From Vectrevirus T145P2: 45,051 bases of DNA. The notes beneath the pieces are model-generated. The model did not search any database, was not told where the DNA came from, and saw only the letters and a list, made by a program, of their open reading frames with translations. Shown here one piece after another: positions 24,658 through 45,051 of this stretch. Made by a program: the position numbers and the translations under genes. The stretch lies in the sequence record OZ035747.1; one strand, 5' to 3'. Numbering within the stretch: the stretch's first letter is position 1; each line of letters opens with the position of its first letter.

Positions 24658-24682
24658 CGTAATAGTTATTGGAGAATGAATT

Positions 24683-25914: not shown

Positions 25915-26312
25915 AAGCATCGGAGGTGGCAGCTTATAAGAAGGAATTGCTAGATAAGCAAGGATGGAAATGCCCTCTGTGTGGTGGCAGTCTCAAAGCT
26001 GTCACACCTGTAAACCGTGTACTTGACCATGACCATGAGACAGGATTCTGCCGTGCTGTTGTATGCCGAGGTTGCAATGGTGCGGAAGGGAAGATTAAGG
26101 GTGTTATCTCTGGTTATGGCAAGGCGGGTAATAACCGTTACTTCCAGCTTCAATGGTTAGAGAGATTGTACGAATACTGGAAGTTACATAGTACGCCTCA
26201 GACAGATAAGTTATATCACAAACATCAAACGGAGGCAGAGAAGCGCGAGGCTAAGAACCGTAAGGCACGCCTTGCTTATGCAAGAAAGAAGAAGGAGGTT
26301 AAAGTTGGGTAA
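25899..26312 (+). CDS. recombination endonuclease VII-like Holliday junction resolvase
   Basis: 137 aa; CPLCGG...DHDHETG...CRGCNGAEG zinc/His-Me motif. Confidence 0.8.
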   Translation: MVSKLKASEVAAYKKELLDKQGWKCPLCGGSLKAVTPVNRVLDHDHETGFCRAVVCRGCNGAEGKIKGVISGYGKAGNNRYFQLQWLERLYEYWKLHSTPQTDKLYHKHQTEAEKREAKNRKARLAYARKKKEVKVG

Positions 26313-27312: not shown

Positions 27313-27329
27313 TTGACACTATAGAACAA
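27307..27329 (+). promoter_or_regulatory. phage RNAP promoter, SP6-like subclass
   Basis: ATTTAGTTGACACTATAGAACAA, one mismatch from the SP6 promoter ATTTAGGTGACACTATAGAA. Confidence 0.75.
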
Positions 27330-27380
27330 AGGGTAGGTATTAGCTTACCCTTGATTGTATAGTGAATGGAGGAATTAATT

Positions 27381-27851
27381 ATGTCAAAGATTTATATTGG
27401 CGAATACGTCGTACGCCGTGCAGCTTACCGAGATGCCATCTGGAATAAACTGTGTGAAAGCCTAGACAAGAAACCAGATGGGGTATTCAAAGTATCCCGT
27501 GCAGAACCTAATTATAACTCTATTATGTTAGAAGGTGTTGAGAAGCGCGAATGGTATGCACCTTACTTCAAGGTTGTTGACTCATTGCAAGATGAAGATC
27601 CTAGCACGTTGGACAACAATATGGTTACTAAGCCTAAGCACTATGAGTTCTTCGATGGGGTAGAGGCAATCACTATCATTGCTCGTAGTATGACCGAGAA
27701 GCAATTTGCTGGATATTGCATGGGTAACGCTTTGAAGTATCGTCTGCGTGCAGGTAAGAAATTCAATACTGAAGAAGACCTGAAGAAAGCAGACTACTAT
27801 AAAGAGTTATTCCAGAAACATCGTCACGAATGTATTGATGAGGATATTTGA
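27381..27851 (+). CDS. DUF3310-like protein (family of T7 gp1.7 nucleotide kinase)
   Basis: AGGAGG then ATG 27381; KPKHYEFFDGVEAITII...QFAGYCMGNALKYRLRAGKK motif. Confidence 0.55.
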   Translation: MSKIYIGEYVVRRAAYRDAIWNKLCESLDKKPDGVFKVSRAEPNYNSIMLEGVEKREWYAPYFKVVDSLQDEDPSTLDNNMVTKPKHYEFFDGVEAITIIARSMTEKQFAGYCMGNALKYRLRAGKKFNTEEDLKKADYYKELFQKHRHECIDEDI

Positions 27852-27852
27852 T

Positions 27853-27969
27853 ATGACTTGTCCTAATTGTGGAAGTGAAGAAACAGAACATGTAGTTATG
27901 TCAGATACTTATCATTTCTATTTCTGTCATAACTGCGACACTACCATTGAAGAGGAAGAAGCTGTATGA
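27853..27969 (+). CDS. small zinc-ribbon protein (38 aa)
   Basis: CPNCG ... CHNCD pair of CxxC; overlaps neighbours. Confidence 0.4.
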   Translation: MTCPNCGSEETEHVVMSDTYHFYFCHNCDTTIEEEEAV

Positions 27970-28913
27970 ATATCTTTGAGTTCCTAGGTCTTCCAGAAGA
28001 TCACCGCAATCACCCATTCATGCTAGTGAAACATCGCGGTGAAGTCCCTGAGAAGAAACTTACTTTTCCATGTTATGGACAGGTGAAACGAGATGGTATC
28101 TTTTCTGCTGTTGTTGTTCGCACTGATGGTGTCGTTGGCGTTTTTGGTCGCACTGGTAAGAAACTGGCAAACACTGAAGTCCTCGAACAAACATTTGCTA
28201 CCTTTCCGGTTGGCATTTATCTTGGTGAGCTTCAGTCTATGGCCGTTGATATCTACCTTGAAGCTCTATCAGGGGTGGTAAATCCTAATCGTACAGAGCC
28301 GCTTGACTTTATAGGCCAGCAGATTAAAGACAACCTGTATATCGACTTCTTCGATATGTTAACCATTAAGGCATTCCATGATGGATTCACTGATGTTTCT
28401 TATCTCAAACGTTACGATGCTTTACATCGTCGCATCGGCGCTCATCTTAGCGGGTACAACGCTATCCTTCCTATTACTCCTTGCCATAATGAGCGAGAAG
28501 TTGAAGCGTTTGCGCAAGAGCAAATAGACGCAGGCCGAGAGGGTGCTGTGTTTAAACTGGACTGTGATTATGAAGCAGGCCACAAAGGTTATCGTCAGAC
28601 TAAAGAAGTCCGTAAGGTAACTTATGACCTTACTTGTATTGGCTTTGAAGAAGGCAAAGGTAAGTACAAAGGTAAGGTAGCTAACCTCATTTTCAAATGG
28701 AAAGGAGGCAAGACAATCAAAGCTATGTTAGGTAAAGGGTGGACTCATGCAGATGCAGAACAGATGTTCCACGATATTAAACATGGTGGACGATTGAATG
28801 TCATTGGTAAAATCTTTGAAGTAAAAGGTCTTCAGGATTCAAGCAAGGGCAACATTCGTCTGCCCAAAGCGGGAGAATTAAGACATGACAAAGATGAACC
28901 AGATTTCTTTTGA
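27966..28913 (+). CDS. ATP-dependent DNA ligase
   Basis: 315 aa; motif I KRDG; C-terminal RLPKAGELRHDKD resembles ligase motif VI. Confidence 0.85.
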   Translation: MNIFEFLGLPEDHRNHPFMLVKHRGEVPEKKLTFPCYGQVKRDGIFSAVVVRTDGVVGVFGRTGKKLANTEVLEQTFATFPVGIYLGELQSMAVDIYLEALSGVVNPNRTEPLDFIGQQIKDNLYIDFFDMLTIKAFHDGFTDVSYLKRYDALHRRIGAHLSGYNAILPITPCHNEREVEAFAQEQIDAGREGAVFKLDCDYEAGHKGYRQTKEVRKVTYDLTCIGFEEGKGKYKGKVANLIFKWKGGKTIKAMLGKGWTHADAEQMFHDIKHGGRLNVIGKIFEVKGLQDSSKGNIRLPKAGELRHDKDEPDFF

Positions 28914-29100
28914 TAGCATGAAGGCGACTCGTGCAGTTGAGGTAGCAGAAGCTATCTTTGAAACTTTATCCTGTGGCATGGAATTGCCGTATACTTTACT
29001 GGCTGATGCAGAAGAGCTTGGTCTTTCTGTAGAAGCTATCCAAGAGAAGGTTGACGAATTATATGGTACAGACGAAGAAGAAACCGACGATTTCATTTGA
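28885..29100 (+). CDS. acidic hypothetical protein (71 aa)
   Basis: GGGAGA then ATG 28885. Confidence 0.5.
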   Translation: MTKMNQISFDSMKATRAVEVAEAIFETLSCGMELPYTLLADAEELGLSVEAIQEKVDELYGTDEEETDDFI

Positions 29101-29233
29101 AGGAATGGAAATGCTTGAGATGATTCTCAAGCCCTCTTCTCCTAAGGTGACTAAGACTCATGAAGAGTTAATCGTTGATGAAGTTAAGCGTTACATCATG
29201 GATTGTGTCAGAGCACAACTGGTGGTCCAATGA
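29063..29233 (+). CDS. hypothetical protein (start uncertain)
   Basis: Track ORF 29051..29233 uses TTG; ATG candidates at 29063 and 29105. Confidence 0.35.
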   Translation: MVQTKKKPTISFEGMEMLEMILKPSSPKVTKTHEELIVDEVKRYIMDCVRAQLVVQ

Positions 29234-29691
29234 TACGTCCAGCTTCCTTCCTAGATATTCCTGAGATTATAAACCTTGGGAATAAATATGTGGAAGAGGA
29301 AGTCAAGGTTGTAGCCCACCACTCAGCCTCATGGAATGCAGAACAAAGTGCACATAACCTTTGTGCATCTCTTAGTAGAGAAGATTTATTCCTATGGGTT
29401 GCTGTAGATGAAGGGCAGATTGTAGGGTTCCTGTGGGCTGGCTATCACGAGTTGGCCCCTTGGACACCTGTAAGAGTTGCCTCTGACATTCTCTTTTATA
29501 TTATACCAGAGAGGCGAGGAACACTACTTGGTATGCGTCTCATCAAAGCCCTAAAGCAATGGGCTAGTGATAATGAATGCTCTGAGGTTCGCCTGTCTAT
29601 CGCCTCTGGTATTAATGAAGAACGTGTCGGACGTATGTATAAGCGACTTGGCTTTGAACCGTTTGGCACTGTGTATAACCTGAAGTTCTAA
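29230..29691 (+). CDS. GNAT-family N-acetyltransferase
   Basis: ATG 29230; IVGFLWAG ... RRGTLLGMRLIKAL ... RMYKRLGFEP acetyl-CoA-binding core. Confidence 0.7.
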   Translation: MIRPASFLDIPEIINLGNKYVEEEVKVVAHHSASWNAEQSAHNLCASLSREDLFLWVAVDEGQIVGFLWAGYHELAPWTPVRVASDILFYIIPERRGTLLGMRLIKALKQWASDNECSEVRLSIASGINEERVGRMYKRLGFEPFGTVYNLKF

Positions 29692-29700
29692 GGAGATAAC

Positions 29701-29910
29701 ATGAGTGTTGTAAAGAAAGCATTTAAGGCTATCGGTCTTGCTCAAGATGCACCACGTATTGAAGCCAAAGTCCCAGCACAGCAGCTTGAGCGTAAGCCTG
29801 AGACTGAAGCTGAAGATATTCAAATTGGTGCAGGTGGTGATGATGCGACTGCATCTGCAAAAGGTAAGCGCGGCCTTGTCCGTCCGGTAGCTTCTAGCTT
29901 GAAGGTGTAA
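29701..29910 (+). CDS. small virion-associated protein, possibly gp6.7-like
   Basis: 69 aa; position immediately before portal. Confidence 0.4.
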   Translation: MSVVKKAFKAIGLAQDAPRIEAKVPAQQLERKPETEAEDIQIGAGGDDATASAKGKRGLVRPVASSLKV

Positions 29911-29911
29911 T

Positions 29912-31462
29912 ATGAAACAGAGCACAGATTTGGAGTATGGAGGTAAGCGGTCTAAGATACCTAAGCTATGGGAGAAGTTCTCCACTAAACGTAGCTCTTT
30001 CCTTGATAGGGCGAAGCATTACTCCAAATTAACCTTGCCCTATCTGATGAATGACAAAGGTGATAACGAGACTTCGCAGAATGGATGGCAAGGTGTAGGT
30101 GCTCAGGCAACTAATCATCTAGCCAACAAGCTAGCGCAAGTACTATTCCCTGCACAGCGTTCCTTCTTCCGTGTAGACTTAACTGCACAAGGTGAGAAGG
30201 TTCTTAATCAGCGTGGCCTGAAGAAGACAGAGCTAGCTACCATCTTCGCTCAAGTGGAAACACGGGCAATGAAAGAGTTAGAGCAACGTCAATTCCGTCC
30301 TGCTGTAGTGGAAGCATTCAAGCATCTTATTGTTGCTGGTAGCTGTATGCTATACAAGCCGAGCAAAGGTGCAATCAGTGCTATCCCAATGCATCACTAT
30401 GTAGTTAACCGTGATACCAATGGCGACCTGTTAGACATTATCTTACTGCAAGAGAAAGCCTTACGCACCTTTGACCCAGCTACACGTGCTGTAGTAGAGG
30501 TTGGCCTGAAAGGTAAGAAGTGCAAGGAAGATGACAGCGTTAAGCTGTACACACATGCTAAGTATCTTGGTGATGGATTTTGGGAACTCAAGCAATCTGC
30601 TGATGATATCCCTGTGGGTAAGGTGAGTAAAATCAAATCAGAAAAGCTACCTTTCATCCCATTAACTTGGAAGCGAAGCTATGGTGAGGATTGGGGTCGC
30701 CCTCTTGCAGAGGATTACTCCGGTGATTTATTCGTTATCCAATTCTTATCTGAAGCGGTTGCCCGTGGTGCTGCGCTGATGGCAGATATCAAGTACCTGA
30801 TTCGTCCGGGTGCTCAAACTGATGTTGACCACTTTGTTAACTCTGGCACTGGTGAGGTTGTCACTGGTGTAGAAGAAGACATCCATATTGTACAGTTAGG
30901 TAAGTACGCAGACCTCACACCTATTAGCGCGGTTCTAGAGGTATACACTCGCCGTATCGGTGTTGTCTTCATGATGGAGACAATGACACGCCGTGACGCC
31001 GAACGTGTTACTGCTGTAGAAATCCAGCGAGATGCGTTAGAGATTGAGCAGAACATGGGTGGGGTATACTCCCTCTTTGCTACTACTATGCAATCGCCAG
31101 TAGCGATGTGGGGTCTGCTGGAGGCAGGGGAGTCCTTCACTAGTGACTTAGTGGACCCTGTGATTATCACAGGTATTGAAGCTTTAGGACGCATGGCTGA
31201 GTTGGATAAACTGGCTAACTTTGCTCAGTATATGTCACTGCCATTACAATGGCCTGAGCCTGTCCTAGCTGCTGTGAAATGGCCTGACTATATGGATTGG
31301 GTGCGTGGTCAAATCTCTGCTGAACTGCCGTTCCTTAAATCAGCGGAAGAGATGGCACAAGAACAGGAAGCACAGATGCAAGCACAGCAAGCACAGATGC
31401 TTGAAGAAGGTGTGGCTAAGGCCGTGCCGGGTGTAATTCAACAAGAACTTAAGGAGGCGTAA
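29912..31462 (+). CDS. portal (head-tail connector, gp8-like)
   Basis: 516 aa; position and size in canonical structural module. Confidence 0.92.
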   Translation: MKQSTDLEYGGKRSKIPKLWEKFSTKRSSFLDRAKHYSKLTLPYLMNDKGDNETSQNGWQGVGAQATNHLANKLAQVLFPAQRSFFRVDLTAQGEKVLNQRGLKKTELATIFAQVETRAMKELEQRQFRPAVVEAFKHLIVAGSCMLYKPSKGAISAIPMHHYVVNRDTNGDLLDIILLQEKALRTFDPATRAVVEVGLKGKKCKEDDSVKLYTHAKYLGDGFWELKQSADDIPVGKVSKIKSEKLPFIPLTWKRSYGEDWGRPLAEDYSGDLFVIQFLSEAVARGAALMADIKYLIRPGAQTDVDHFVNSGTGEVVTGVEEDIHIVQLGKYADLTPISAVLEVYTRRIGVVFMMETMTRRDAERVTAVEIQRDALEIEQNMGGVYSLFATTMQSPVAMWGLLEAGESFTSDLVDPVIITGIEALGRMAELDKLANFAQYMSLPLQWPEPVLAAVKWPDYMDWVRGQISAELPFLKSAEEMAQEQEAQMQAQQAQMLEEGVAKAVPGVIQQELKEA

Positions 31463-32382
31463 TGTCTTTCTCATTTACTGAACCGTCAACCACTCACCCT
31501 ACTGCTGAAGAGGGTACGGTAGAAACCAAGGAGGTAACAACTGATGCTGCTACTACTGATGCTCCTGCTGACGCTGGCACTGCTGTACAAGATGACAATG
31601 CTGGTGCACAACCTACTGAAGACACCGGAGGAGAAGCTTCTGGACAGCCTTCAGAAGAAGGAGACAATGGCGGAGAGAATGGTGAATCTAAGCCAGATGA
31701 TACCGCGACCGACACTGAGGAAGTGCAGTACTTCTTCGGAGAATATGAAGTAACAGTAGATATACCACAGGATGTTACTGATAGCCTTAAAGAGAAAGGT
31801 ATTGATGCTAAGCAGGTTGCCAAGGAACTCTATGCCAAAGATGGCAAGTTTGAATTGTCCGATGCAACCAAGCAGAAGCTGTATGATGCCTTTGGCAAGT
31901 TTGCAGTAGACGCCTACTTGTCTGGCCTGAAAGCGCAGAATGAAGCCTTCTTCCTGAAGGAAGCCAATGCTGCAAAGGAACTTGAAGCAGCTAACACTCA
32001 GCGCTTCTCTGATGTTTCTAAGGAAGTTGGTGGCGAAGAAGGTTGGTCCCGTCTTGAGGCGTGGGCGCTGGAAGCGCTGTCCGATGACGAACTCACGGCA
32101 TTCAATGCGGTGATGGAGTCTGGCAACCAATACCTCCAGCAATATGCTGTGCGTGAACTAGAAAGCCGCCGTAAAGCTGCACAGGGTGATGACAAGCCAA
32201 ACTTGATTGAGCCATCTGCACCTGCTGCCGCATCTGAGGATAATGGACCCCTGTCTCGCGATCAGTATCTCCGTGAGATGATGACGCTGGGTTCCCGCTT
32301 CGGTACAGACAAGAAAGCTGCTGCTGAGTATCAGGCTAAGCTGGATGCTCGCCGCCGTGCTGGCATGGCTCGCGGTATCTAA
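31462..32382 (+). CDS. capsid assembly scaffolding protein (gp9-like)
   Basis: 306 aa; acidic N-terminus; start overlaps portal stop (TAATG). Confidence 0.85.
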   Translation: MSFSFTEPSTTHPTAEEGTVETKEVTTDAATTDAPADAGTAVQDDNAGAQPTEDTGGEASGQPSEEGDNGGENGESKPDDTATDTEEVQYFFGEYEVTVDIPQDVTDSLKEKGIDAKQVAKELYAKDGKFELSDATKQKLYDAFGKFAVDAYLSGLKAQNEAFFLKEANAAKELEAANTQRFSDVSKEVGGEEGWSRLEAWALEALSDDELTAFNAVMESGNQYLQQYAVRELESRRKAAQGDDKPNLIEPSAPAAASEDNGPLSRDQYLREMMTLGSRFGTDKKAAAEYQAKLDARRRAGMARGI

Positions 32383-32388
32383 TTCAGT

Positions 32389-32411
32389 ATTTACTGGACA
32401 CTATAGAAGGG
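32389..32411 (+). promoter_or_regulatory. phage RNAP promoter upstream of the capsid gene
   Basis: ATTTACTGGACACTATAGAAGGG. Confidence 0.85.
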
Positions 32412-32461
32412 AGAAAAGCTCTCCCTAGTTATCAATTTGATTTATAAGGAGATTATAATAC

Positions 32462-33670
32462 ATGTCTACACCGAATACTCTGACTAACGTTGCTGTATCT
32501 GCATCCGGTGAGGTTGACAGCCTTCTCATTGAGAAGTTTAATGGTAAGGTCAATGAGCAGTACCTGAAAGGTGAGAACATTCTGTCCTACTTTGATGTAC
32601 AAACTGTTACTGGCACTAACACAGTGAGCAACAAATATTTGGGCGAAACTGAGTTGCAGGTGCTAGCACCGGGTCAGTCTCCTAATGCCACCCCTACTCA
32701 GGCGGATAAAAACCAGTTGGTAATTGATACCACTGTCATTGCTCGTAACACTGTGGCTCACATCCACGATGTACAAGGTGACATCGATAGCCTGAAACCA
32801 AAACTGGCTATGAACCAAGCCAAGCAACTGAAACGTCTGGAAGACCAGATGGCAATTCAGCAGATGCTGTTAGGCGGTATTGCTAACACCAAGGCCAAAC
32901 GTAACAAGCCGCGTGTTAAAGGGCATGGCTTCTCTATCAACGTTAACGTAACTGAGAGTGAAGCACTGGCTAACCCTCAGTATGTTATGGCTGCGGTAGA
33001 GTATGCTCTGGAGCAACAGCTTGAGCAGGAAGTGGACATCTCTGATGTAGCTATCATGATGCCGTGGAAGTTCTTCAATGCTCTGCGTGATGCAGACCGA
33101 ATTGTAGATAAGACTTACACTATCAGCCAGTCTGGTGCAACCATTAATGGCTTCGTTCTCTCTTCTTATAACTGCCCTGTGATCCCGTCTAACCGATTCC
33201 CTACCTTCGCTCAGAATCAGGCTCACCACCTGTTGTCTAATGAAGATAACGGCTATCGTTATGACCCTATCGCAGAGATGAATGGTGCAGTTGCTGTTCT
33301 GTTCACTGCCGACGCACTGCTGGTGGGTCGTACCATTGAAGTGACTGGTGACATCTTCTATGAGAAGAAAGAGAAGACTTATTACATTGACACCTTCATG
33401 GCTGAGGGTGCAATCCCTGACCGTTGGGAAGCAGTGTCTGTAGTTACCACTAAACGTAATGCAACTACTGGTGCTGCTGAAGGTTCTGGTGATGATCACG
33501 CAACCGTACTGGCTCGTGCACAGCGTAAGGCTGTATATGTCAAAACCGAAGGTGCTGCGGCTGCATTCTCTGCTGCCCCAGCAGGTATCCAAGCGGAAGA
33601 CCTTGTAGCGGCGGTACGTGCTGTAATGGCAAATGACATCAAGCCGACTGCAATGAAACCTACTGAGTAA
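32462..33670 (+). CDS. major capsid protein (gp10-like)
   Basis: 402 aa; strong codon bias; followed by terminator. Confidence 0.93.
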   Translation: MSTPNTLTNVAVSASGEVDSLLIEKFNGKVNEQYLKGENILSYFDVQTVTGTNTVSNKYLGETELQVLAPGQSPNATPTQADKNQLVIDTTVIARNTVAHIHDVQGDIDSLKPKLAMNQAKQLKRLEDQMAIQQMLLGGIANTKAKRNKPRVKGHGFSINVNVTESEALANPQYVMAAVEYALEQQLEQEVDISDVAIMMPWKFFNALRDADRIVDKTYTISQSGATINGFVLSSYNCPVIPSNRFPTFAQNQAHHLLSNEDNGYRYDPIAEMNGAVAVLFTADALLVGRTIEVTGDIFYEKKEKTYYIDTFMAEGAIPDRWEAVSVVTTKRNATTGAAEGSGDDHATVLARAQRKAVYVKTEGAAAAFSAAPAGIQAEDLVAAVRAVMANDIKPTAMKPTE

Positions 33671-33678
33671 TACCTATG

Positions 33679-33711
33679 CCCTATCTACCTTGCGTAGGTA
33701 GGGTTCTTTTT
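33679..33711 (+). terminator. intrinsic terminator after the capsid gene (T-phi-like position)
   Basis: CCCTATCTAC / GTAGGTAGGG 10-bp stem followed by TTCTTTTT. Confidence 0.75.
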
Positions 33712-33724
33712 GTTAGGAGGATTC

Positions 33725-34462
33725 ATGCCTGTAATTAGACAAACCAGTAAAGTAGGACATATGATGGAAGATGTGGCCTTCCAGATTATTGATAGTAAGC
33801 TGGAAGCGGTAAACTTGTGTATGCGAGCTATTGGTCGTGAGGGTGTGGATTCTCTCGACTCAGGTGACTTGGACGCAGAAGATGCAAGCAAGATGATCGA
33901 CATCGTATCCCAGCGATTCCAGTACAACAAAGGAGGTGGCTGGTGGTTCAATCGTGAACCGAACTGGCAACTTGCACCAGACACTAACGGTGAAGTTAAT
34001 TTACCTAACAACTGCCTAGCAGTATTGCAGTGTTATGCTTTAGGTGAAAAGAAAGTACCTATGACTATGCGAGCAGGTAAGCTCTACTCTACATGGAGTC
34101 ATACCTTTGATATGCGTAAGCATGTGAATGCTAATGGTATGATTCGTCTTACCTTACTTACCTTACTTCCATATGAGCATCTACCTACTAGTGTAATGCA
34201 GGCTATTGCCTATCAAGCTGCTGTAGAGTTTATTGTGTCTAAGGATGCAGATCAGACTAAGCTAGCCACTGCGCAGCAGATAGCCACTCAGCTTCTTATG
34301 GATGTACAATCTGAGCAAATGTCACAGAAGCGATTAAACATGCTGGTACATAACCCCACTCAGCGTCAGTTTGGTATCATGGCTGGTGGCTCTCAGAATG
34401 TACCTGCTTACTCTCATTCACCTTATGAGAGTTGGGCGCTCCGTCCGTGGGAGGATCGTTAA
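33725..34462 (+). CDS. tail tubular protein A (gp11-like)
   Basis: AGGAGG then ATG 33725; 245 aa. Confidence 0.9.
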   Translation: MPVIRQTSKVGHMMEDVAFQIIDSKLEAVNLCMRAIGREGVDSLDSGDLDAEDASKMIDIVSQRFQYNKGGGWWFNREPNWQLAPDTNGEVNLPNNCLAVLQCYALGEKKVPMTMRAGKLYSTWSHTFDMRKHVNANGMIRLTLLTLLPYEHLPTSVMQAIAYQAAVEFIVSKDADQTKLATAQQIATQLLMDVQSEQMSQKRLNMLVHNPTQRQFGIMAGGSQNVPAYSHSPYESWALRPWEDR

Positions 34463-36864
34463 TGGAAGTACAAGGTTCATTAGGTAGACAAATCCAAGGG
34501 ATTAGCCAGCAGCCGCCAGCGGTACGCTTGGATGGTCAGTGCACAGCTATGGTTAATATGATACCTGATGTAGTGAATGGTACTCAATCACGCATGGGTA
34601 CAACTCATATTGCAAAGATACTTGATGCGGGGACTGATGACATGGCCACTCATCATTATCGCAGAGGTGATGGTGATGAAGAGTATTTCTTCACGTTGAA
34701 GAAAGGACAAGTTCCTGAGATATTTGATAAGTATGGGCGCAAATGTAATGTGACTTCACAAGATGCACCTATGACCTACCTCTCTGAGGTTGTTAATCCA
34801 AGGGAAGATGTGCAATTCATGACGATAGCTGATGTTACTTTCATGCTTAATCGTAGGAAAGTAGTTAAAGCTAGTAACAGGAAGTCACCTAAAGTTGGAA
34901 ACAAAGCCATTGTGTTTTGTGCGTATGGTCAATATGGTACATCTTATTCCATTGTAATTAATGGGACCAACGCTGCTAGTTTTAAAACACCGGATGGTGG
35001 AAGTGCAGACCATGTTGAACAAATTCGAACTGAACGTATCACTTCTGAATTGTACGCTAAGTTGCAGCAATGGAGCGGTGTGAGTGACTATGAAATACAA
35101 AGAGACGGTACTAGTATATTTATCGAGAGACGGGATGGTGCTAGCTTTACAATAACAACCACCGATGGTGCAAAAGGTAAGGATTTAGTGGCTATCAAGA
35201 ATAAAGTTAGCTCTACTGACCTACTCCCTTCTCGTGCGCCTGCTGGTTATAAAGTGCAAGTGTGGCCTACTGGCAGCAAACCTGAGTCTCGTTACTGGCT
35301 GCAAGCTGAGCCTAAAGAGGGAAACCTTGTGTCTTGGAAAGAAACAATAGCTGCTGATGTATTACTTGGGTTTGATAAAGGCACAATGCCTTACATTATT
35401 GAACGTACAGGTATCATCGACGGCATAGCTCAATTCAAGATAAGACAAGGTGATTGGGAAGATCGTAAAGTAGGTGATGACTTGACTAACCCTATGCCTT
35501 CTTTTATTGATGAGGAAGTACCCCAGACAATAGGTGGAATGTTCATGGTGCAGAACCGCCTATGCTTTACAGCAGGTGAAGCGGTTATTGCTTCTCGTAC
35601 ATCATACTTCTTCGATTTCTTTCGTTATACGGTTATCTCTGCATTGGCAACTGACCCATTTGATATTTTCTCAGATGCTAGTGAAGTCTACCAGCTAAAA
35701 CATGCAGTGACCTTAGATGGCGCTACCGTGTTGTTCTCTGATAAGTCACAATTCATACTGCCAGGCGATAAGCCTTTAGAGAAGTCAAATGCACTGCTTA
35801 AGCCTGTTACAACATTTGAAGTGAACAATAAGGTGAAGCCAGTAGTAACTGGTGAATCGGTAATGTTTGCCACTAATGATGGTTCTTACTCTGGTGTACG
35901 AGAGTTCTATACAGACTCTTATAGTGACACTAAGAAGGCACAAGCAATCACAAGTCATGTGAATAAGCTTATCGAAGGTAACATTATCAACATGGCAGCA
36001 AGTACCAATGTCAACCGATTGCTTGTCACTACCGATAAATATCGTAACATAATTTACTGCTATGATTGGTTATGGCAAGGTACAGACCGTGTACAATCAG
36101 CATGGCATGTATGGGAGTGGCCTATGGGTACAAAGGTGCGAGGTATGTTTTATTCTGGTGAATTACTTTATCTACTCCTTGAGCGAGGCGATGGCGTCTA
36201 TCTGGAGAAGATGGACATGGGTGATGCACTAACCTATGGTTTGAATGACCGCATCAGAATGGATAGGCAAGCAGAGTTGATCTTCAAGCATTTTAAAGCA
36301 GAAGATGAATGGATATCTGAACCACTTCCTTGGACTCCTACTAACCCAGAACTTTTGGATTGCATCTTAATAGAAGGGTGGGATTCATATATTGGAGGTT
36401 CTTTCCTGTTCAAATATAACCCTAGTGATAACACCTTGTCTACAACCTTTGACATGCATGATGATAACCACGTAAAAGCGAAGGTTATTGTTGGTCAGAT
36501 TTACCCTCAAGAGTTTGAACCAACACCTGTAGTTATCAGAGATAGGCAAGACCGTGTATCCTATATTGATGTACCTGTTGTGGGGTTGGTTCACCTTAAT
36601 CTTGATATGTATCCTGATTTCTCCGTGGAAGTTAAGAATGTGAAGAGTGGTAAAGTACGCAGGGTGCTAGCGTCAAACCGTATAGGTGGTGCTCTCAACA
36701 ACACAGTAGGTTATGTTGAACCAAGGGAGGGTGTCTTCAGATTCCCACTGAGGGCTAAGAGCACGGATGCTGTTTATCGTATTATTGTAGAATCACCTCA
36801 TACATTCCAGCTTCGCGATATTGAGTGGGAAGGGAGCTACAATCCAACCAAAAGGAGGGTCTAA
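34462..36864 (+). CDS. tail tubular protein B (gp12-like)
   Basis: GGGAGGA then ATG 34462; 800 aa; N-terminal GISQQPP as in T7 gp12. Confidence 0.93.
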   Translation: MEVQGSLGRQIQGISQQPPAVRLDGQCTAMVNMIPDVVNGTQSRMGTTHIAKILDAGTDDMATHHYRRGDGDEEYFFTLKKGQVPEIFDKYGRKCNVTSQDAPMTYLSEVVNPREDVQFMTIADVTFMLNRRKVVKASNRKSPKVGNKAIVFCAYGQYGTSYSIVINGTNAASFKTPDGGSADHVEQIRTERITSELYAKLQQWSGVSDYEIQRDGTSIFIERRDGASFTITTTDGAKGKDLVAIKNKVSSTDLLPSRAPAGYKVQVWPTGSKPESRYWLQAEPKEGNLVSWKETIAADVLLGFDKGTMPYIIERTGIIDGIAQFKIRQGDWEDRKVGDDLTNPMPSFIDEEVPQTIGGMFMVQNRLCFTAGEAVIASRTSYFFDFFRYTVISALATDPFDIFSDASEVYQLKHAVTLDGATVLFSDKSQFILPGDKPLEKSNALLKPVTTFEVNNKVKPVVTGESVMFATNDGSYSGVREFYTDSYSDTKKAQAITSHVNKLIEGNIINMAASTNVNRLLVTTDKYRNIIYCYDWLWQGTDRVQSAWHVWEWPMGTKVRGMFYSGELLYLLLERGDGVYLEKMDMGDALTYGLNDRIRMDRQAELIFKHFKAEDEWISEPLPWTPTNPELLDCILIEGWDSYIGGSFLFKYNPSDNTLSTTFDMHDDNHVKAKVIVGQIYPQEFEPTPVVIRDRQDRVSYIDVPVVGLVHLNLDMYPDFSVEVKNVKSGKVRRVLASNRIGGALNNTVGYVEPREGVFRFPLRAKSTDAVYRIIVESPHTFQLRDIEWEGSYNPTKRRV

Positions 36865-37610
36865 TGGCTATAGGTTCAGCCGTTATGGCTGGTATGTCTT
36901 CTATTGGTAGTATGTTTGCAGGTAGCGGTGCAGCAGCCGCTGCTGGTGGTACTGCCGCAGCAGCAGGAGGGACAGCCGCCGCAGGTGGCGGAGGTTTGCT
37001 TGGCTCCCTTGGTAGTTTCTTAGGAGGTTCTTCTGCTGGCTTCTCTAATGCAGGACTGCTTAGTGCAGGTATGCAAGGTCTTGGTCTTCTAGGCAATCTT
37101 TTTGGTGGAAGTGATGAAGCCAAAGCTATGAAGAAAGCTCAGGAGGAGCAATGGCGGCAGCAGTTAATTGCTACACAAGAAGCATATAAGACAGTGGCAG
37201 ATGCAGAACGCTCTGCTGCTAAACAGTATCATGCGGATGCAATAAGCAATCAGGCTTCACTACTGCAGCAGAGAGCACAGGTTGCATTGCTTGCTGGTGC
37301 TACTGGTACTGGTGGTAGCTCTGTGTCTTCTATGCTGAATGACTTAGCAGCAGAAGGCGGAAGGAACCAGAGTACAATTATCGATAACTATGAGAATCAG
37401 AAGATTAACTTCACAAACCAGCTTAAGTCCATCCAACGTGGTGGTCAGATGCAGATGCGTGAGTTTAAGAAACCTTCTGCCGTGAGCACCTTGGTGCAAG
37501 GTATACCGAGTCTGGCATCTGCCTATGTAACAGGTAGTAAGTCCGGCATGGCTTTAGGTAAAGCTTTAACTGATTCTCGTACCTATTCATCTGGAACAAG
37601 AGGTATTTAA
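36864..37610 (+). CDS. internal virion protein A (Gly/Ala-rich N-terminus)
   Basis: AAAGGAGGG then ATG 36864; 248 aa. Confidence 0.75.
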   Translation: MAIGSAVMAGMSSIGSMFAGSGAAAAAGGTAAAAGGTAAAGGGGLLGSLGSFLGGSSAGFSNAGLLSAGMQGLGLLGNLFGGSDEAKAMKKAQEEQWRQQLIATQEAYKTVADAERSAAKQYHADAISNQASLLQQRAQVALLAGATGTGGSSVSSMLNDLAAEGGRNQSTIIDNYENQKINFTNQLKSIQRGGQMQMREFKKPSAVSTLVQGIPSLASAYVTGSKSGMALGKALTDSRTYSSGTRGI

Positions 37611-40558
37611 TGGCAATTGAGCGACAAGCAGTACAAGGTCTGCCACAAGTGCAGGCCACTTCTCCTAATGTCATGACCTTTGCACCTCAGCGAGTTGGAG
37701 GTGTGGAGGCTGGCGTAGCTTCTACCTCCGGTAGTCGATTTATCGAAGACCTTATTCGAGCAGCCAGTAGTGTAGCTGATGTAACCACTGGTATCCTTAA
37801 TCAAAAGATTGAGGAAGATAAGGTTGTTCAAATGGAACGGGCATATAACGGATTAATGCCTTCTGAGGATGCAACTCGTGGTGGCGCTCGTGCTAACATG
37901 CTTGTCAAAGCTCAACTGCTAGCTAATGATGAAGCAGCACGAATGAAAGACATGGCTACTCGTTTCCAAGGAACGGATGACGAGTGGACACAGCTTATGG
38001 TTGACTCTCGTAATGAGATGCAGAATAAGCTGTTCCAGCAATACCCTGAGTTGCAAGGTGACAAAGATACTATGCGTATGGTCACTAATGTCTTCCAAGA
38101 ACAGCAGCCTCAGATTTGGGCTACACGAACCCAGCATAAACTTGACCGTGAACAAGCAGACCGTGAGGATACCTTTGACGGGCGAGTGGCTTCTACTTGG
38201 GATTCTAATATTGACCCTGAAGCCTCTGGATATGCTTTACAGGAACGGATCCGCGAAGGTCTTACTCAAGGATTACTACCTGAACAGATGCACAAGAAGT
38301 TAGTCCAGCGAGCAATTTCACTTGCACAAGGCGGTGATGTTAGCATGGCTGAAGCCCTGAAGTATGTGAAGGACGATAAGGGTGTTTCTGTTTATGCTAA
38401 GAATCCACAGCTTATCACAGCCATCACTAGTGGTAATGCAGTTTGGGCTAGGAATAATGTAGCTGATGTAACTCGTATGTCTTTCGAAGTTAAAGAATCA
38501 TACCTTGCAGGCGATTTAACTGATGAAGAATTGTTGGAACGAGCACAGCACATTAATAATCTGACAGGTAACTCTGTCTTCTCTAACCCAGAACTAGAGG
38601 CACTGATGCGCCAACGAGCTAAGCAGAATGCAGAGCTAGGTGCAATGCAGGATATGCGCCGTGAGCTTTACTCCGACCGCCTGACTGGCTTCCAAGGTAA
38701 GACTGATAAAGAGAAGAAGGCTTACATTGATGTTATCAAACAAGATAGCCAACTTTATGCAGACCAGCAAATCAAACAACGTGGCTTGGACCCTTACAGT
38801 CAAGAGGCTGAAGCTATTCGTGGTGCAGTGGAAGTGCAGCGCCTACAATTCATGAACTCCAAAGGCTTAGTGGATGATACCTTTGAGTCTCGTATCAAAG
38901 CCATGGAATCTATGCTATCGCCTGAGCACTTTGCCAAGGGCGAACCACAAGAGTTGATGACTATTCGCCAGTTGTGGGAACAGTTGCCAGAAGAGAGCCG
39001 AGGTGTCTTTGGTGACACGGTGAATGGCTACATGGATAACTACAACACTGCACTACAAATGGGGGAGACACCTTTGCAGGCTGCAAGGTTTGCGCGTAAA
39101 GCACAGCAGAAATTCTCTCGTACTGAGAAGGAAACCAAGAAGTTCAACTCAGCTATTGGAGATGCACTGGATGAGGTATCTGGTGCTGGCTGGTTTGATG
39201 GTAAAACCGAAGTGTCAGACTTAGGTAAAGCTATTGCGGAAGAAGAGTTACGAGCTAAGGCCAATATGTTGTGGTCTAGTGGTATGCGTAACATGGATTC
39301 CATCAAGAAGGCTTTAATTACTTGGGGCAATAAACGCTACACTCAATCAGAGGATGCAAAGACTTCCGGTGGCTATTTCATTAAAGGTGATTACACTTCT
39401 GCATCTGATATGCTTATGTCAGTTGGGAAAGGCGTAAACCCTACCGATGTACCTCTGGCGCTTGGTAGGTATGTAGAAACACAGATGCCAGAATTGAAGA
39501 AGGAGCTTCAAGAGGGGGAAACTAAAGATGATATATACATTGATTACAATGAACAGAAAGGTACTTTCGTGATTCGTGCTGGTGCAGCAGGTCGCCCTCT
39601 TTCTGGGGTAATCCCTGTAACCTCTTTAGATACCACTTCACTACTAGATTCTGCCTACCAGAAGAAAGTAGAGGAACGAGATAAAGGCGAGTATGTTCAC
39701 CCGTATCGTACAGGTATTGGTGCACAAGAGCCTATGCCAGCTAAACCAACTGCCAAAGATATTGGTAAATTTGGACTAGCTAACTTCCTCATGTCTTCTG
39801 CTTTTGCTTCTGGTGAGAATCTGCCTTCTAACTTCGAGATTAACTATCGAGGTAATATGCAACAATTCTATGACAAGCTAGCTATGGATGAGAATAAAGA
39901 TAAAGTTGGCTTTAATAAGGCAACTGGAACCTTTACTCCATATAAAGACGCTCACGGTGAGTCTATCGGTTACGGTCATTTCTTAACGGAAGAAGAGAAG
40001 CGAAACGGGTATATTAAGATTGGCGATGAACTAGTTCCCTATCGAGGGTCTATGTCTCAGCTTACAGAGAGCAAGGCTCGCGCTCTTATGGAGCAAGATG
40101 CTAAGAAGCATGTGCCTCCTACTCGTGACTGGAAGATTCCGTTTGACCAGATGCATCCTGCACAGCAACGTGGCTTAATGGATTTAACCTACAATTTAGG
40201 TAAAGGTGGAATCCAGAACTCACCGCGTGCTCTTGCTGCATTCAAAGCTGGTAAGCTTACGGAGGGTTTTATCGAAATGCTGGGCACTGCATCAAGTGAA
40301 GGTAAGCGTATTCCTGGCCTACTGAAGCGACGCGCTGAGGCATACAATATGGCATCTGCTGGTGGTGTGCCTAAGATTACCGAAGTGGAGACTCGTGAAG
40401 ATGGCTCCATGTGGGTTAGGTTTGGTGGACCTATGCCAGCAGGTTCTGTCTCGGCATGGACTCATAAACGTATTGGCGCGGATGGCTGGTATCAGGTTTA
40501 TGAGGCTGCACCTACAAAGTTAGCTAAAGGTTCTAAGGTAGGTAAAGTTAAGTTGTAG
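37610..40558 (+). CDS. internal virion protein B with C-terminal lysozyme-like (GH24-type) domain
   Basis: 982 aa; HGESIGYGHF ... LMDLTYNLGKGG near 39900-40380 resembles phage lysozyme motifs. Confidence 0.85.
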   Translation: MAIERQAVQGLPQVQATSPNVMTFAPQRVGGVEAGVASTSGSRFIEDLIRAASSVADVTTGILNQKIEEDKVVQMERAYNGLMPSEDATRGGARANMLVKAQLLANDEAARMKDMATRFQGTDDEWTQLMVDSRNEMQNKLFQQYPELQGDKDTMRMVTNVFQEQQPQIWATRTQHKLDREQADREDTFDGRVASTWDSNIDPEASGYALQERIREGLTQGLLPEQMHKKLVQRAISLAQGGDVSMAEALKYVKDDKGVSVYAKNPQLITAITSGNAVWARNNVADVTRMSFEVKESYLAGDLTDEELLERAQHINNLTGNSVFSNPELEALMRQRAKQNAELGAMQDMRRELYSDRLTGFQGKTDKEKKAYIDVIKQDSQLYADQQIKQRGLDPYSQEAEAIRGAVEVQRLQFMNSKGLVDDTFESRIKAMESMLSPEHFAKGEPQELMTIRQLWEQLPEESRGVFGDTVNGYMDNYNTALQMGETPLQAARFARKAQQKFSRTEKETKKFNSAIGDALDEVSGAGWFDGKTEVSDLGKAIAEEELRAKANMLWSSGMRNMDSIKKALITWGNKRYTQSEDAKTSGGYFIKGDYTSASDMLMSVGKGVNPTDVPLALGRYVETQMPELKKELQEGETKDDIYIDYNEQKGTFVIRAGAAGRPLSGVIPVTSLDTTSLLDSAYQKKVEERDKGEYVHPYRTGIGAQEPMPAKPTAKDIGKFGLANFLMSSAFASGENLPSNFEINYRGNMQQFYDKLAMDENKDKVGFNKATGTFTPYKDAHGESIGYGHFLTEEEKRNGYIKIGDELVPYRGSMSQLTESKARALMEQDAKKHVPPTRDWKIPFDQMHPAQQRGLMDLTYNLGKGGIQNSPRALAAFKAGKLTEGFIEMLGTASSEGKRIPGLLKRRAEAYNMASAGGVPKITEVETREDGSMWVRFGGPMPAGSVSAWTHKRIGADGWYQVYEAAPTKLAKGSKVGKVKL

Positions 40559-40575
40559 TACCTAACTCAAGGCTT

Positions 40576-40591
40576 GTCTCACATGTGAGAC
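40576..40591. repeat. 16-bp palindrome GTCTCACATGTGAGAC, copy 5
   Basis: Same extended context GCTTGTCTCACATGTGAGACAGG as copy 3. Confidence 0.8.
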
Positions 40592-40622
40592 AGGTCTTTA
40601 TGATAGGCACTATGGAGGAATT

Positions 40623-43600
40623 ATGGAACAAGACATTAAGACGAATTGGGCTGGATATGTCCAGTCTACTCCTGAGCCGTTTTCTATTGAGGCGGCTCCG
40701 GTATCGGCTCCTACGATACGCCAGCGTAATGAGTTACAAGAGCAAGTTCTTGAAGCTAAAGCTGACGCTGATATTTTAGGTGCTGTAGGTGCTGCCTTCC
40801 AGAATGAGTGGTTGGCATTCGGAGGCAAGCGGTGGTATGACCGTGCCACTGCTGATTTCACACCTCAACCAGACTTTGAGATACAACCTGAGCAACGTGA
40901 AGCACTACGTTTCAAATATGGTACGGATATGATGCAGACAATCACTGAGGGTGTTCGTTCTGAGGATGAATTGAACTTCCGTATTCAGAATGCTGATGAA
41001 GACCTTGAGCGCAATAAGCGCATTGCTCAGGCTGGCTGGGTTGGCTCTGTGGCGACGATTGGCGCTGCTGTGCTTGACCCTGTGGGATGGGTTGCCTCTA
41101 TTCCAACCGGTGGTGCCGCTAAAGTTGGGCTCGTAGGCCGTGCTGTGCGTGGCGCTATCGCCGCTGGCGTGAGTAATGCCGCTATTGAATCCGTATTGGT
41201 CCAAGGTGACATGACTCGTGATTTGGATGACATTATGGTAGCACTAGGTTCCGGTATGGCGATGGGTGGCGTTATTGGCGCTGTAGCGCGTGGTAGGGCC
41301 ACTAAGCTCAGTGAGCAAGGGGATGACAGGGCTGCGAGCATTGTGCGCAGTGCAGACGCAGGGGACCGCTATGTGCGTGCTGTTGCTGATGATAGTATCG
41401 GTGCGATGCGTGTTAAGGGTGAAGAGGTACTCACGGAGGGTGCATTTGATGTCTCTAGCAAAGGTGAAGATTTGCTGAAAACCCTACAGCGGGAAGGTAA
41501 TGCAATTGATATGACCCCTCGCCGCTGGGCCGGAACTCTGTCTGCCCTTGGTACTGTCGTACATTCCTCTCAGGATGCAAGTGTACGCGGCCTTGGTGCT
41601 CGCCTGTTTGAGTCCCCCCAAGGCTTAGGTATGCAGAAGGCATCTGCTAGTCTCATGCAGAATACTAACTTGAACCGTCTGAAATCTGCTGATATGAACC
41701 GTTTCAATGACGGGTTTGACTTATGGCTCAAAGAAAATAATATCAATCCAGTTTCAGGCCATACTAACTCTCACTATGTGCAGCAATATAATGAGAAGGT
41801 ATGGGAAGCTGTACGCATCGGTATGGATGAGTCTACGCCTAAGTCTATCCGTATGGCAGCAGAGGGGCAGCAAGCTATGTATCGTGAAGCATTAGCATTA
41901 CGTCAACGCTCTGGTGAAGCTGGGTTTGAAAAGGTTAAAGCAGATGATAAGTACATGCCTGATATTTTTGACAGTATGAAGGCTCGTCGTCAATTCAGTA
42001 TGCACGATAAAGAGGACATCATTGAGTTATTCTCTCGTGCATACCAGAATGGTTCTCGTAAGGTTCCAAAGGAAGTGGCTGATGATATTGCACGAGCACA
42101 AGTAAACCGCGTTGCTGATGCCACCTTGACCGGACAGCTTAGCTTTGAAAAGGCTATGTCTGGTCAAACCAAAGCAGAATATGAAGCACTCATGCGCAAA
42201 GCAGGCTTTAGTGATGAAGAGATTGAAAAGATGGTAGAAGCTCTGGATAATAAAGAAACCAGAGATAATATCTCTAACCGAGCTAAGATGAGTTTAGGCT
42301 TAGATGTTACTCAAGAGTACAATGGTATTCGTATTCGTGACTTTATGAACACTAACGTGGAAGAGTTAACAGATAACTACATGAAGGAAGCGGCAGGTGG
42401 TGCTGCCTTGGCTCGTCAAGGTTTCTCTACCTATCAGGCTGCACTTAATGCAATTGATCTTGTAGAGCGAAATGCACGAAATGCAGCTAAAGATACAAAA
42501 GCACACGCACAATTTGAAGCGGAGTCGGCTAAGATCCGTCAATCAGAGCCTGATTACAAGAAGGCACAAGAGAAGATTGAAGAGTTAAAGAAGCGACTTA
42601 AATTGAAAGAGAAAGATGAAGCAGCAGGTCTGGCTATTGATGAAGAAATCCGTCAGATGCGAGAGGGGCTTCGCTTGATTATGGGTAAATCTATCGATTC
42701 AAACCCACAAGATTTGTCTACTAAAATGCTGCGTCGTGGGCGTGACATTACAGGCGTACTTCGCTTAGGTCAGATGGGCTTCGCACAGCTAGGTGAACTT
42801 GCTAACTTCATGGGTGAGTTTGGTATTGCTGCCACCACTATGGCTTTAGGTAAGCAATTCCGCTTCACCTCTAAGGCGTTGCGTAATGGCGATGGCTTCT
42901 TTCGAGATAAGAATTTAGCTGAGGTTGAGCGAATGGTAGGTTACATTGGTGAAGACAACTGGCTAACAACTAAGGGTGCGCGTCCAGATGAGTTTGGTGA
43001 TGTAACCACAGTGCGAGGTATGATGGCCCATTTTGACCAGTCCATGAACTCTATACGACGTGCTCAGACAAACCTATCCCTCTTCCGCATGGCACAGGGT
43101 TCTCTGGAGCGAATGACCAATAGGCAAATAGCTTTGTCTTTCATTGACCACCTTGAAGGCAAGAAGATTATTCCTCAGAAGAAACTGGAGGAACTTGGTC
43201 TTACTCAGGAGTTCATGACTAACCTACAGAAGCACTATGATGCTAACTCTAAAGGTTCTGGCTTGCTTGGCTTTGATACAATGCCTTATGACATGGGTGA
43301 AACTTTAGCTAATGCTATTCGTCGTAAGTCAGGTCTAATTATCCAACGTAACTTCATTGGTGATGAAGGTATCTGGATGAACAAAGCACTAGGTAAGACA
43401 TTTGCACAGCTTAAGTCGTTCTCTCTTGTATCTGGTGAGAAGCAATTTGGTCGAGGGATTCGCCACGATAAAATTGGTCTTGCTAAGAAGACAGCTTACG
43501 GTTTTGCTTTGGGTTCAATAGTGTATGCGGCAAAAGCCTATGTGAACTCTATTGGTCGAGAAGACCAAGATGAATATTTGGAAGAGAAGTTATCGCCTAA

Positions 43601-43931
43601 AGGGTTGGCCTTTGGTGCAATGGGTATGATGAGTACAACTGCTGTATTTAGTCTAGGTGGAGATTTCTTAGGTGGCCTAGGTGTTCTACCTTCTGAGTTA
43701 GTACAATCCCGTTATGAGGCTGGCTTTCAGACTAAGGGTTTGATAGACCAAATACCACTAGTAGGTGTTGGTCAAGATGCATATCGTTTAGCAGATTCTA
43801 TAACTAGATACGCAGAGGGTGATACAGAAGGTGTAGATGTGGCACGTAGGGCTTTACGCTTAGTGCCTCTAGCTAATGTAATAGGAATCCAGAACGCATT
43901 GCGTTATGGCTTAGATGAACTGGAGGATTAA
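40623..43931 (+). CDS. internal virion protein C (gp16-like, 1102 aa)
   Basis: Size and position; GGAGG upstream. Confidence 0.85.
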   Translation: MEQDIKTNWAGYVQSTPEPFSIEAAPVSAPTIRQRNELQEQVLEAKADADILGAVGAAFQNEWLAFGGKRWYDRATADFTPQPDFEIQPEQREALRFKYGTDMMQTITEGVRSEDELNFRIQNADEDLERNKRIAQAGWVGSVATIGAAVLDPVGWVASIPTGGAAKVGLVGRAVRGAIAAGVSNAAIESVLVQGDMTRDLDDIMVALGSGMAMGGVIGAVARGRATKLSEQGDDRAASIVRSADAGDRYVRAVADDSIGAMRVKGEEVLTEGAFDVSSKGEDLLKTLQREGNAIDMTPRRWAGTLSALGTVVHSSQDASVRGLGARLFESPQGLGMQKASASLMQNTNLNRLKSADMNRFNDGFDLWLKENNINPVSGHTNSHYVQQYNEKVWEAVRIGMDESTPKSIRMAAEGQQAMYREALALRQRSGEAGFEKVKADDKYMPDIFDSMKARRQFSMHDKEDIIELFSRAYQNGSRKVPKEVADDIARAQVNRVADATLTGQLSFEKAMSGQTKAEYEALMRKAGFSDEEIEKMVEALDNKETRDNISNRAKMSLGLDVTQEYNGIRIRDFMNTNVEELTDNYMKEAAGGAALARQGFSTYQAALNAIDLVERNARNAAKDTKAHAQFEAESAKIRQSEPDYKKAQEKIEELKKRLKLKEKDEAAGLAIDEEIRQMREGLRLIMGKSIDSNPQDLSTKMLRRGRDITGVLRLGQMGFAQLGELANFMGEFGIAATTMALGKQFRFTSKALRNGDGFFRDKNLAEVERMVGYIGEDNWLTTKGARPDEFGDVTTVRGMMAHFDQSMNSIRRAQTNLSLFRMAQGSLERMTNRQIALSFIDHLEGKKIIPQKKLEELGLTQEFMTNLQKHYDANSKGSGLLGFDTMPYDMGETLANAIRRKSGLIIQRNFIGDEGIWMNKALGKTFAQLKSFSLVSGEKQFGRGIRHDKIGLAKKTAYGFALGSIVYAAKAYVNSIGREDQDEYLEEKLSPKGLAFGAMGMMSTTAVFSLGGDFLGGLGVLPSELVQSRYEAGFQTKGLIDQIPLVGVGQDAYRLADSITRYAEGDTEGVDVARRALRLVPLANVIGIQNALRYGLDELED

Positions 43932-44893
43932 TGAGTTATACTTTCACAGAACATATAGCCAACGGTACGCAAGTAACCTATCCCTTTAGCTTTGCTGGTA
44001 GGGATAAAGGTTATCTTCGTGCCTCAGATGTGATAGTGGAGTCTCTTCAAGGTAACACTTGGATTGAGGTTACATCTGGCTGGCAACTAACTGGCACGCA
44101 CCAGATTACTTTTGATGTAGCACCAGTTGCAGGTTTGAAGTTCCGTATTCGAAGGGAAGTACAAAAGGAGTATCCATACGCTGAGTTTGACCGTGGTGTT
44201 ACCTTGGATATGAAGTCTTTAAATGGTTCTTTCATTCATATACTGGAGATTACACAGGAGTTACTTGACGGGTTTTATCCAGAAGGATACTTCATTAAAC
44301 AGAATGTAAGCTGGGGCGGCAATAAGATTACTGATTTGGCTGATGGCACAAATCCTGGAGATGCAGTAAATAAAGGGCAGCTTGATGCCATCGACAAGAA
44401 GCATACAGATTGGAACGCCAAACAGGACATTGAGATTGCTGGCCTTAAGGCTGGTATGACCTCTGGTATTGCGCACAGAACTGTTCCTTGGTACACGATA
44501 GCCCAAGGTGGTGAGATTTCCGTAAAACCACCTTATGAATTTCAAGATGCACTAGTTTTCCTTAATGGGGTATTGCAGCACCAAATTGTAGGCGCATACT
44601 CTATAAGCAACAACACTATCACTTTCGCAGAGCCGCTTGTGGCGGGTACAGAGGTGTATGTGCTGATTGGTAGTCGTGTGGCTACATCTGAACCTAATAT
44701 TCAGTTAGAGTTGAACTTTGACTTAGTAGAAGGACAACAAGTAGTACAGATTGGCTCTGCATTTAAGTACATTGAGGTCTACCTTGATGGATTATTACAA
44801 CCTAAACTTGCTTATCAGGTAGACGGTGACATTGTTACTTTCTCAGAAAGAGTACCAGAATGCCGGATGACTGCTAAGATTATCACAGCATAA
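43931..44893 (+). CDS. tail fibre adaptor protein (T7 gp17 N-terminal domain-like, no receptor-binding domain)
   Basis: 320 aa; resembles the N-terminal tail-attachment part of T7 gp17 only. Confidence 0.85.
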   Translation: MSYTFTEHIANGTQVTYPFSFAGRDKGYLRASDVIVESLQGNTWIEVTSGWQLTGTHQITFDVAPVAGLKFRIRREVQKEYPYAEFDRGVTLDMKSLNGSFIHILEITQELLDGFYPEGYFIKQNVSWGGNKITDLADGTNPGDAVNKGQLDAIDKKHTDWNAKQDIEIAGLKAGMTSGIAHRTVPWYTIAQGGEISVKPPYEFQDALVFLNGVLQHQIVGAYSISNNTITFAEPLVAGTEVYVLIGSRVATSEPNIQLELNFDLVEGQQVVQIGSAFKYIEVYLDGLLQPKLAYQVDGDIVTFSERVPECRMTAKIITA

Positions 44894-44902
44894 GGGGGTG
44901 GG

Positions 44903-45051
44903 ATGATTAACTCCGAACTGGTAGATAGTGGTGTGAAGCTTGCGCCACCTGCACTCGTATCAGGTGGGTACTTCCTCGGTATCAGTTGGGATAATTGGGT
45001 GTTAATAGCAACATTCATTTATACCGTGTTGCAAATTGGGGACTGGTTTTA
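44903..45051 (+). CDS. class II holin (T7 gp17.5-like), 3-prime partial at window end
   Basis: AAGGGGG then ATG 44903; GYFLGISWDNWVLIATFIYTVLQIGDWF parallels T7 gp17.5; ORF runs off the window. Confidence 0.7.
   Translation, partial: MINSELVDSGVKLAPPALVSGGYFLGISWDNWVLIATFIYTVLQIGDWF

Follow-up and report, generated by a model that had tools for sequence, protein, structure and literature searches.

A holin gene divided between the two ends of a Vectrevirus genome record indicates a rotated sequence with a single copy of the terminal repeat

The 45,051-nt sequence deposited as OZ035747.1 (Vectrevirus T145P2), which we call the window and by which we mean the whole stretch of DNA analyzed, begins and stops within one and the same gene. 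When base 45051 is joined to base 1, the resulting open reading frame is, as judged from its sequence, that of a T7-family holin, intact in the real molecule. The evidence gathered here supports the window being a rotated complete genome of a Vectrevirus phage of E. coli (K1-5/K1E-like and SP6-related; Autographiviridae, Molineuxvirinae). The explanation that we favor, with a probability of roughly 0.95, is that the virion DNA has fixed ends and a short repeat, and that in the record the repeat has been collapsed, the sequence closed on itself and then opened inside codon 50 of the holin gene. Nothing in this is new: for phages of this type, the literature amply documents both the collapse of terminal repeats and an arbitrary start base, and annotated proteins with the very same sequence as the holin exist.

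The two parts of the holin gene are located as follows:

44903..45051, + strand: 5' part of the holin gene, codons 1 to 49 and positions 1 and 2 of codon 50
1..46, + strand: 3' part, comprising the third base of codon 50, 14 codons and the stop TAA at 44-46

The gene starts at ATG 44903, with the ribosome-binding site GGGGGTGGG ahead of it. As the initial annotation had pointed out, and as we saw on joining the ends and translating, the final 149 bases of the window (44903-45051) are an open frame that leaves over two nucleotides, TA at 45051, and continues in frame with base 1. That base (T) completes codon 50 as TAT (Tyr), and the joined reading frame runs uninterrupted over 44903..45051 and 1..43 to the TAA at 44-46. 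The same annotation had counted 15 more codons and a protein of 65 aa; its stop position stands, but the product, MINSELVDSGVKLAPPALVSGGYFLGISWDNWVLIATFIYTVLQIGDWFYNKFKIWREKRERTQ, is 64 aa long (49 + 1 + 14), as codon 50 is completed and followed by 14 others. The 5' part codes for the N terminus and the hydrophobic segment(s), and the 3' part of the gene provides the basic tail, NKFKIWREKRERTQ. Kyte-Doolittle hydropathy peaks at residues ~31-49, with a weaker maximum at ~12-27, and the last 15 residues include six K/R and two E. The product thus has the makeup of a small membrane protein of this type (~60-70 aa, hydrophobic segment(s), and charged C-terminal tail).

By our own arithmetic, an open continuation of 14 codons would arise by chance with a probability of ~0.5, (61/64)^14, so the continuation is not significant alone and its significance comes from homology. 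The joined sequence, the only form to which the following profile matches refer, aligned with Pfam PF10746 (Phage_holin_2_2) at 95.5 bits over model positions 1-61 of 61 (cut-off, 25.4 bits) and with the PHROG 920 holin family at 5.8e-28. It is identical (64/64) to the annotated holins of mutPK1A2 (p47) and Mt1B1_P10 and differs little from K1-5 gp38 (63/64) and K1E gp38 (58/64), all four being 64 aa long as well. The residues encoded from the window start coincide, 15 out of 15, with the C terminus of the orthologues in mutPK1A2 and Mt1B1_P10. The proposal of a T7-type holin with a basic tail is therefore borne out by PF10746, PHROG 920 and the full identity to annotated holins. By its predicted function, the holin would insert in the inner membrane via its hydrophobic core and would then trigger endolysin release, with the basic tail on the cytoplasmic side, presumably working with the endolysin and the spanin encoded 3-4 kb downstream.

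The holin locus lies between the adaptor gene (43931-44893) and the small terminase gene (30-329), an order that is the same in K1-5, K1E, mutPK1A2 and Mt1B1_P10. The neighboring packaging and lysis genes are the following:

43931..44893, + strand: tail fiber/adaptor gene (gp37-like; PHROG 2710, 1.6e-148), directly upstream of the holin gene
30..329, + strand: small terminase subunit, GTG start (PHROG 891, 9.5e-26; PF11123, 3.6e-16)
331..774, + strand: HNH homing-endonuclease gene (PHROG 59, 1.3e-29; PF13392), positioned between the two terminase genes
761..2659, + strand: large terminase subunit, T7 type (PHROG 17672, 2.3e-238; PF22530)
within 3356..3754, + strand: endolysin of the M15-peptidase type, the lysis partner of the holin (PHROG 894, 7.5e-46)
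within 4018..4299, + strand: Rz-like spanin (PHROG 8971, 5.6e-39; homologous residues 28-93 of the reading frame)

The counterpart of the first of these is annotated as the gp37 adaptor in K1E. For the small terminase, the start at position 30 given in the initial annotation agrees with a GTG codon there and with both profile matches. The gene overlaps the 3' end of the holin gene by 17 nt, exactly like genes 38 and 39 of K1-5, and the start codon of K1-5 gene 39 is also GTG. The true start of the large terminase is likely ATG 761 (MAKARESQ..., as in K1-5 gp40), going by the sequence of the N terminus.

HNH genes occupy different slots within the group. The slot in the window (331-774) and in Mt1B1_P10 is between the two terminase genes, that in ACG-C91 (489-875) is between the genes for the holin (74 aa there) and the small terminase, and that in K1E (38777-39310) is inside the large terminase gene; K1-5 is without an HNH gene. 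Two adjacent reading frames (2754-3098 and 3117-3410), located after the large terminase gene and before the endolysin, both match PHROG 2725, and the pair looks like a tandem duplication. Reading frames of the PHROG 2725 type are annotated as "acetyl-CoA acetyltransferase" in relatives, a doubtful and inherited name.

After rotation, the window is collinear over its whole length with K1E and mutPK1A2, and collinear blocks with 86-98% identity to K1E, mutPK1A2 and Mt1B1_P10 extend over the whole rotated window. For the first 8.7 kb, the best matches in the phage collection were OZ035802 (96.8% identity over 94%) and Mt1B1_P10 (93.9% over 100%). Besides this similarity and collinearity, the window shares with Vectrevirus a single-subunit RNA polymerase with its own promoters and genes on one strand; the polymerase is an 875-aa reading frame at 12712-15339 that aligns with the K1E gp7 region at 97.7%. 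The initial annotation had described a complete T7-like genome, and this holds for the rotated sequence and its collinearity with relatives, but a second copy of the terminal repeat (266-267 bp) is absent. No terminal repeat was detected at the window ends (exact lengths of 10-399 nt were tested), nor any k-mer overlap, and a search of the window for a second, diverged copy gave only an unrelated 62-nt family from the early region.

The repeats of four relatives provided the position of the predicted ends:

K1-5: exact repeat of 234 bp; left end at window 8737, right end at ~9001
K1E: exact repeat of 288 bp; left end at window 8735, right end at 9001
mutPK1A2: exact repeat of 286 bp; left end at window 8736, right end at 9001
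Mt1B1_P10: exact repeat of 267 bp; left end at window 8736, right end at 9001
8736..9001 of the window, + strand: predicted direct terminal repeat, single copy, 266 bp (267 bp if counted from 8735), to which the repeats of the relatives map

The left and right repeats of each reference map to the same window segment; the ends of K1-5 map less completely than those of K1E, mutPK1A2 and Mt1B1_P10, and left-end calls among the relatives vary by 1-2 nt. Identity over the terminal region was 96.8% for Mt1B1_P10 and 82-89% for K1-5, K1E and mutPK1A2. Both boundaries are kept in 5/5 aligned sequences, the left one, at 8735, reading GGCGTGTGTGAGGTG before and TCTCGCCCTCGCCCTCGCCGG after the cut, and the right one, at 9001, GGGCTA before and TCTGTTCG after it (in longer context, GTGGGTGGGCTA followed by TCTGTTCGTTTCGCT). 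The earlier suggestion of physical termini within the window is in line with this, the ends of the four relatives mapping to 8735-8737 and 9001 by homology only. In this isolate, the true ends would accordingly be placed, from the alignments, at about 8736 (+/-1) and 9001, and with one repeat copy in the window, the predicted packaged molecule would extend over 8736..45051 and 1..9001, a total of ~45,317 bp. Among relatives, the termini of Mt1B1_P10 were determined by applying PhageTerm to sequencing reads (PMC10470868), and those of the SP6-like UAB_Phi78 were examined by Bal31 digestion, with 179-bp repeats reported (PMC4837284).

Of the other explanations, headful (pac) packaging fares best and is still very improbable. 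Under it, virion DNA would be truly circularly permuted without fixed ends, and any linear form of the sequence would be equally valid; phages of this kind also give circularly closing assemblies (PMC5557969). However, the large terminase belongs to the T7-type family (PF22530 Terminase-T7 RNaseH-like, 1.6e-35; PHROG 17672, 2.3e-238), as expected for T7-type packaging, the closest relative, Mt1B1_P10, has fixed, PhageTerm-defined ends with a 267-bp repeat, and the window retains the repeat as well as the sequences at its two boundaries. Relatives without defined ends, which would suit headful packaging, were not what we found, as the closest ones carry exact terminal repeats at fixed positions.

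A short motif is overrepresented around the predicted terminal repeat. The heptamer CTTAGTG is present 21 times in the window versus 7.7 expected, with one dense cluster:

8529..9610, + strand: CTTAGTG cluster, 11 copies in 1.1 kb, flanking and inside the terminal repeat

Looser CTTAGT variants are found at 9080-9180. Short-repeat arrays adjoin the terminal repeat of T7, and the CTTAGTG cluster looks similar; its copies may be packaging or concatemer-processing signals.

Turning to the join itself, a 781-nt query across it was contiguous in 26 phage records, with up to 99.4% identity, and a 306-nt query centered on the junction was contiguous in 56 deposited Vectrevirus genomes, with 100% identity in VEc3 and AAPEc6. 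In reverse complement, positions 19267-36347 of Mt1B1_P10 align with window 27966-45051 and positions 36348-45359 with window 1-9001, without a gap at the join. Since 36347 passes directly to 36348 there, an independently assembled genome reads through the junction without an indel, and the join was likewise crossed without an indel in the alignments to mutPK1A2, K1-5, VEc3 and AAPEc6. The initial annotation had named a frame or stop interruption at this point as evidence against its reading; none was seen, the 56 relatives being contiguous and the alignments free of indels.

That the window ends are the true ends of packaged DNA, with a holin that is genuinely split or truncated, corresponds to the record as given, which is linear and begins and stops there. 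This is scarcely credible against the 56 relatives that read through the junction, the two halves whose joined product agrees with intact holins at 64/64 residues, and the real ends of the relatives, which map 8.7-9.0 kb into the window. There is also no repeat at the window ends, whereas every end-defined relative has one, and a cut at this place would leave the small terminase gene without anything upstream of -29. An assembly or editing error, with bases missing or duplicated at the ends and a fortuitous in-frame continuation, could draw on the roughly even chance of a 14-codon open run taken alone, but the indel-free alignments over the join to all five genomes (Mt1B1_P10, mutPK1A2, K1-5, VEc3 and AAPEc6) and the lack of any remaining k-mer overlap at the ends reduce it to a negligible option.

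The rotated record with a collapsed repeat remains our reading, and the choice of its first base can be compared with other deposits. OZ035802, also from Vectrevirus T145P2, agrees with the window throughout its first 60 and final 160 nt, so that its holin is split in the same codon. Among the matches listed, nine "Vectrevirus" records of the OZ0357xx/OZ0358xx series have the exact homologue of window position 1 as their own position 1, and the alignments of three further OZ records begin at record position 18, which is in register with that start; start points agreed in 12/12 of those listed, 17 such records having matched in all. Going by this shared start, the window may come from the same ENA project as these records. 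As the start point recurs throughout the project records that were listed, the cut looks like a project-wide convention and not like biology, and a start that is shared and not random implies deliberate rotation to a common anchor. Coordinate 1 is then arbitrary as a start point, as had been claimed, with the refinement that it seems to follow a convention of the project and not to have been drawn at random.

The project used Nextera libraries and SPAdes, with ambiguities resolved with Bandage (bioRxiv 10.1101/2023.11.22.567924); the methods of its preprint name SPAdes, Bandage and Prokka only and describe no rotation step (bioRxiv 10.1101/2023.11.22.567924). Other deposits start at the GTG of the small terminase (PQ476009, PQ476011 and OL362272) or at the ATG of the holin (OL362273). 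The opening point of the window lies 29 nt ahead of the start codon of the small terminase, not at that codon, and no reading frame or start codon begins at its base 1. Positions 1-6 read TAATAA, a double stop in the third frame, which is neither that of the holin nor that of the small terminase. Assemblers are described as assigning the first base of terminal-repeat phages randomly, with T7 as a described case (PMC5557969), and the terminus signal is lost in transposase libraries (PMC5557969). A physical origin of the cut, through a secondary terminase cleavage or nick site that biases assembly breaks, or else termini in this isolate unlike those of its relatives, has next to no probability in our estimation; a putative secondary site of this sort could lie near the holin/small-terminase overlap.

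The favored sequence of events, collapse of the repeat followed by rotation, begins with the DNA in the cell. Replication in the T7 group produces concatemers joined through one repeat copy, and the T7-type terminase cuts at fixed sites, packaging duplicating the repeat so that one copy stands at each virion end. Short-read assembly would merge the two copies, by which the contig would close on itself, and the depositor would pick the first base, here 29 nt upstream of the small terminase start. Because the holin gene ends inside the small terminase gene, such a cut falls in holin codon 50. We infer this collapse-then-rotate history for the record as a whole.

In practical terms, a linear annotation of the record misses the holin or calls it truncated, and the lysis cassette then seems incomplete. 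The stated length is also without one copy of the terminal repeat, ~266 bp. For synteny and other comparative work, the sequence should first be rotated to ~8736; the missing repeat copy should also be restored and the holin gene annotated. The feature is an ordinary record-keeping artifact without new biology, and the value of recognizing it is practical only.

Further observations concern transcription and the tailspikes. The SP6-type promoter core GGACACTATAGAAGA has 13 matches on the + strand, scattered over the window, versus 1.4 expected, and these are absent from 4350 to 11496, a gap that fits a host-transcribed early region starting from the predicted left end. A scan for sigma-70 promoters downstream of that end gave two hits versus 2.5 expected from shuffles; as there is no enrichment, it lends no independent support to the predicted left end. 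One GGACACTATAGAAGA match, at 128-142, is located inside the small terminase gene, ~100 nt past the junction.

In the early region, CTCTTTAACAAT has five exact copies on the + strand at 9589-10956 versus 0.37 expected. A strong hairpin (10654-10715, -29 kcal/mol, z = -6) carries one of them in its loop, whereas folding is weak for the other copies; three of the five are members of a 62-nt repeat family. These sites are candidate RNase III-type processing sites of the early mRNA. An Rfam scan of 8300-12800 returned only a subthreshold microRNA match, attributable to chance, and nothing for the CTCTTTAACAAT sites.

Two tailspike genes (4371-5870 and 5924-8389) are found just before the right end. 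The product of the first, with 499 aa, takes the place that the K5 lyase has in K1-5; it matches PHROG 8649 (unknown function) best, together with tailspike N-terminal adaptor motifs. The second codes for an 821-aa endosialidase-type spike whose DNA is 96.5% identical to the K1E gp47 region. Judged by sequence, the pair suggests K1-capsule specificity plus a second, uncharacterized receptor-binding activity.

Compared with known systems, the record resembles the artifact described in the PhageTerm paper in having one repeat copy, a self-closing contig and a start unrelated to the termini. It differs in that the listed deposits of the project share its start, either exactly or in register. With T7 and its holin gp17.5, the likeness extends to a full-length match to the PF10746 model, a similar size (the T7 holin has 67 aa), a hydrophobic core with a charged tail after it at the C terminus, and a position of the gene just upstream of the small terminase gene. 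Unlike in T7, an M15-type endolysin and an Rz-like spanin are encoded after the terminase genes in the window, as in SP6 and K1-5 (PMC4837284).

The closest system is Mt1B1_P10 (MT496971; Vectrevirus), which is collinear over the whole genome with 93-97% identity and has the same holin (64/64), an HNH gene in the same slot and a 267-bp repeat that aligns to window 8736-9001. It was deposited from PhageTerm-defined ends, with both repeat copies and in reverse orientation, and it also differs in several segments of the early and middle regions, which appear as alignment gaps. The reference Vectrevirus genomes K1-5 (AY370674) and K1E (AM084415) have the same order of gp37, gp38 and gp39 (17-nt overlap, GTG), and this order continues as in the window through the large terminase, the lysis genes, two tailspike positions and the terminal repeat. 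They differ from the window in the length of that repeat, 234 bp in K1-5 and 288 bp in K1E versus ~266 bp, and in the first tailspike, which is the K5 lyase in K1-5, the small gp46 in K1E and the 499-aa protein in the window.
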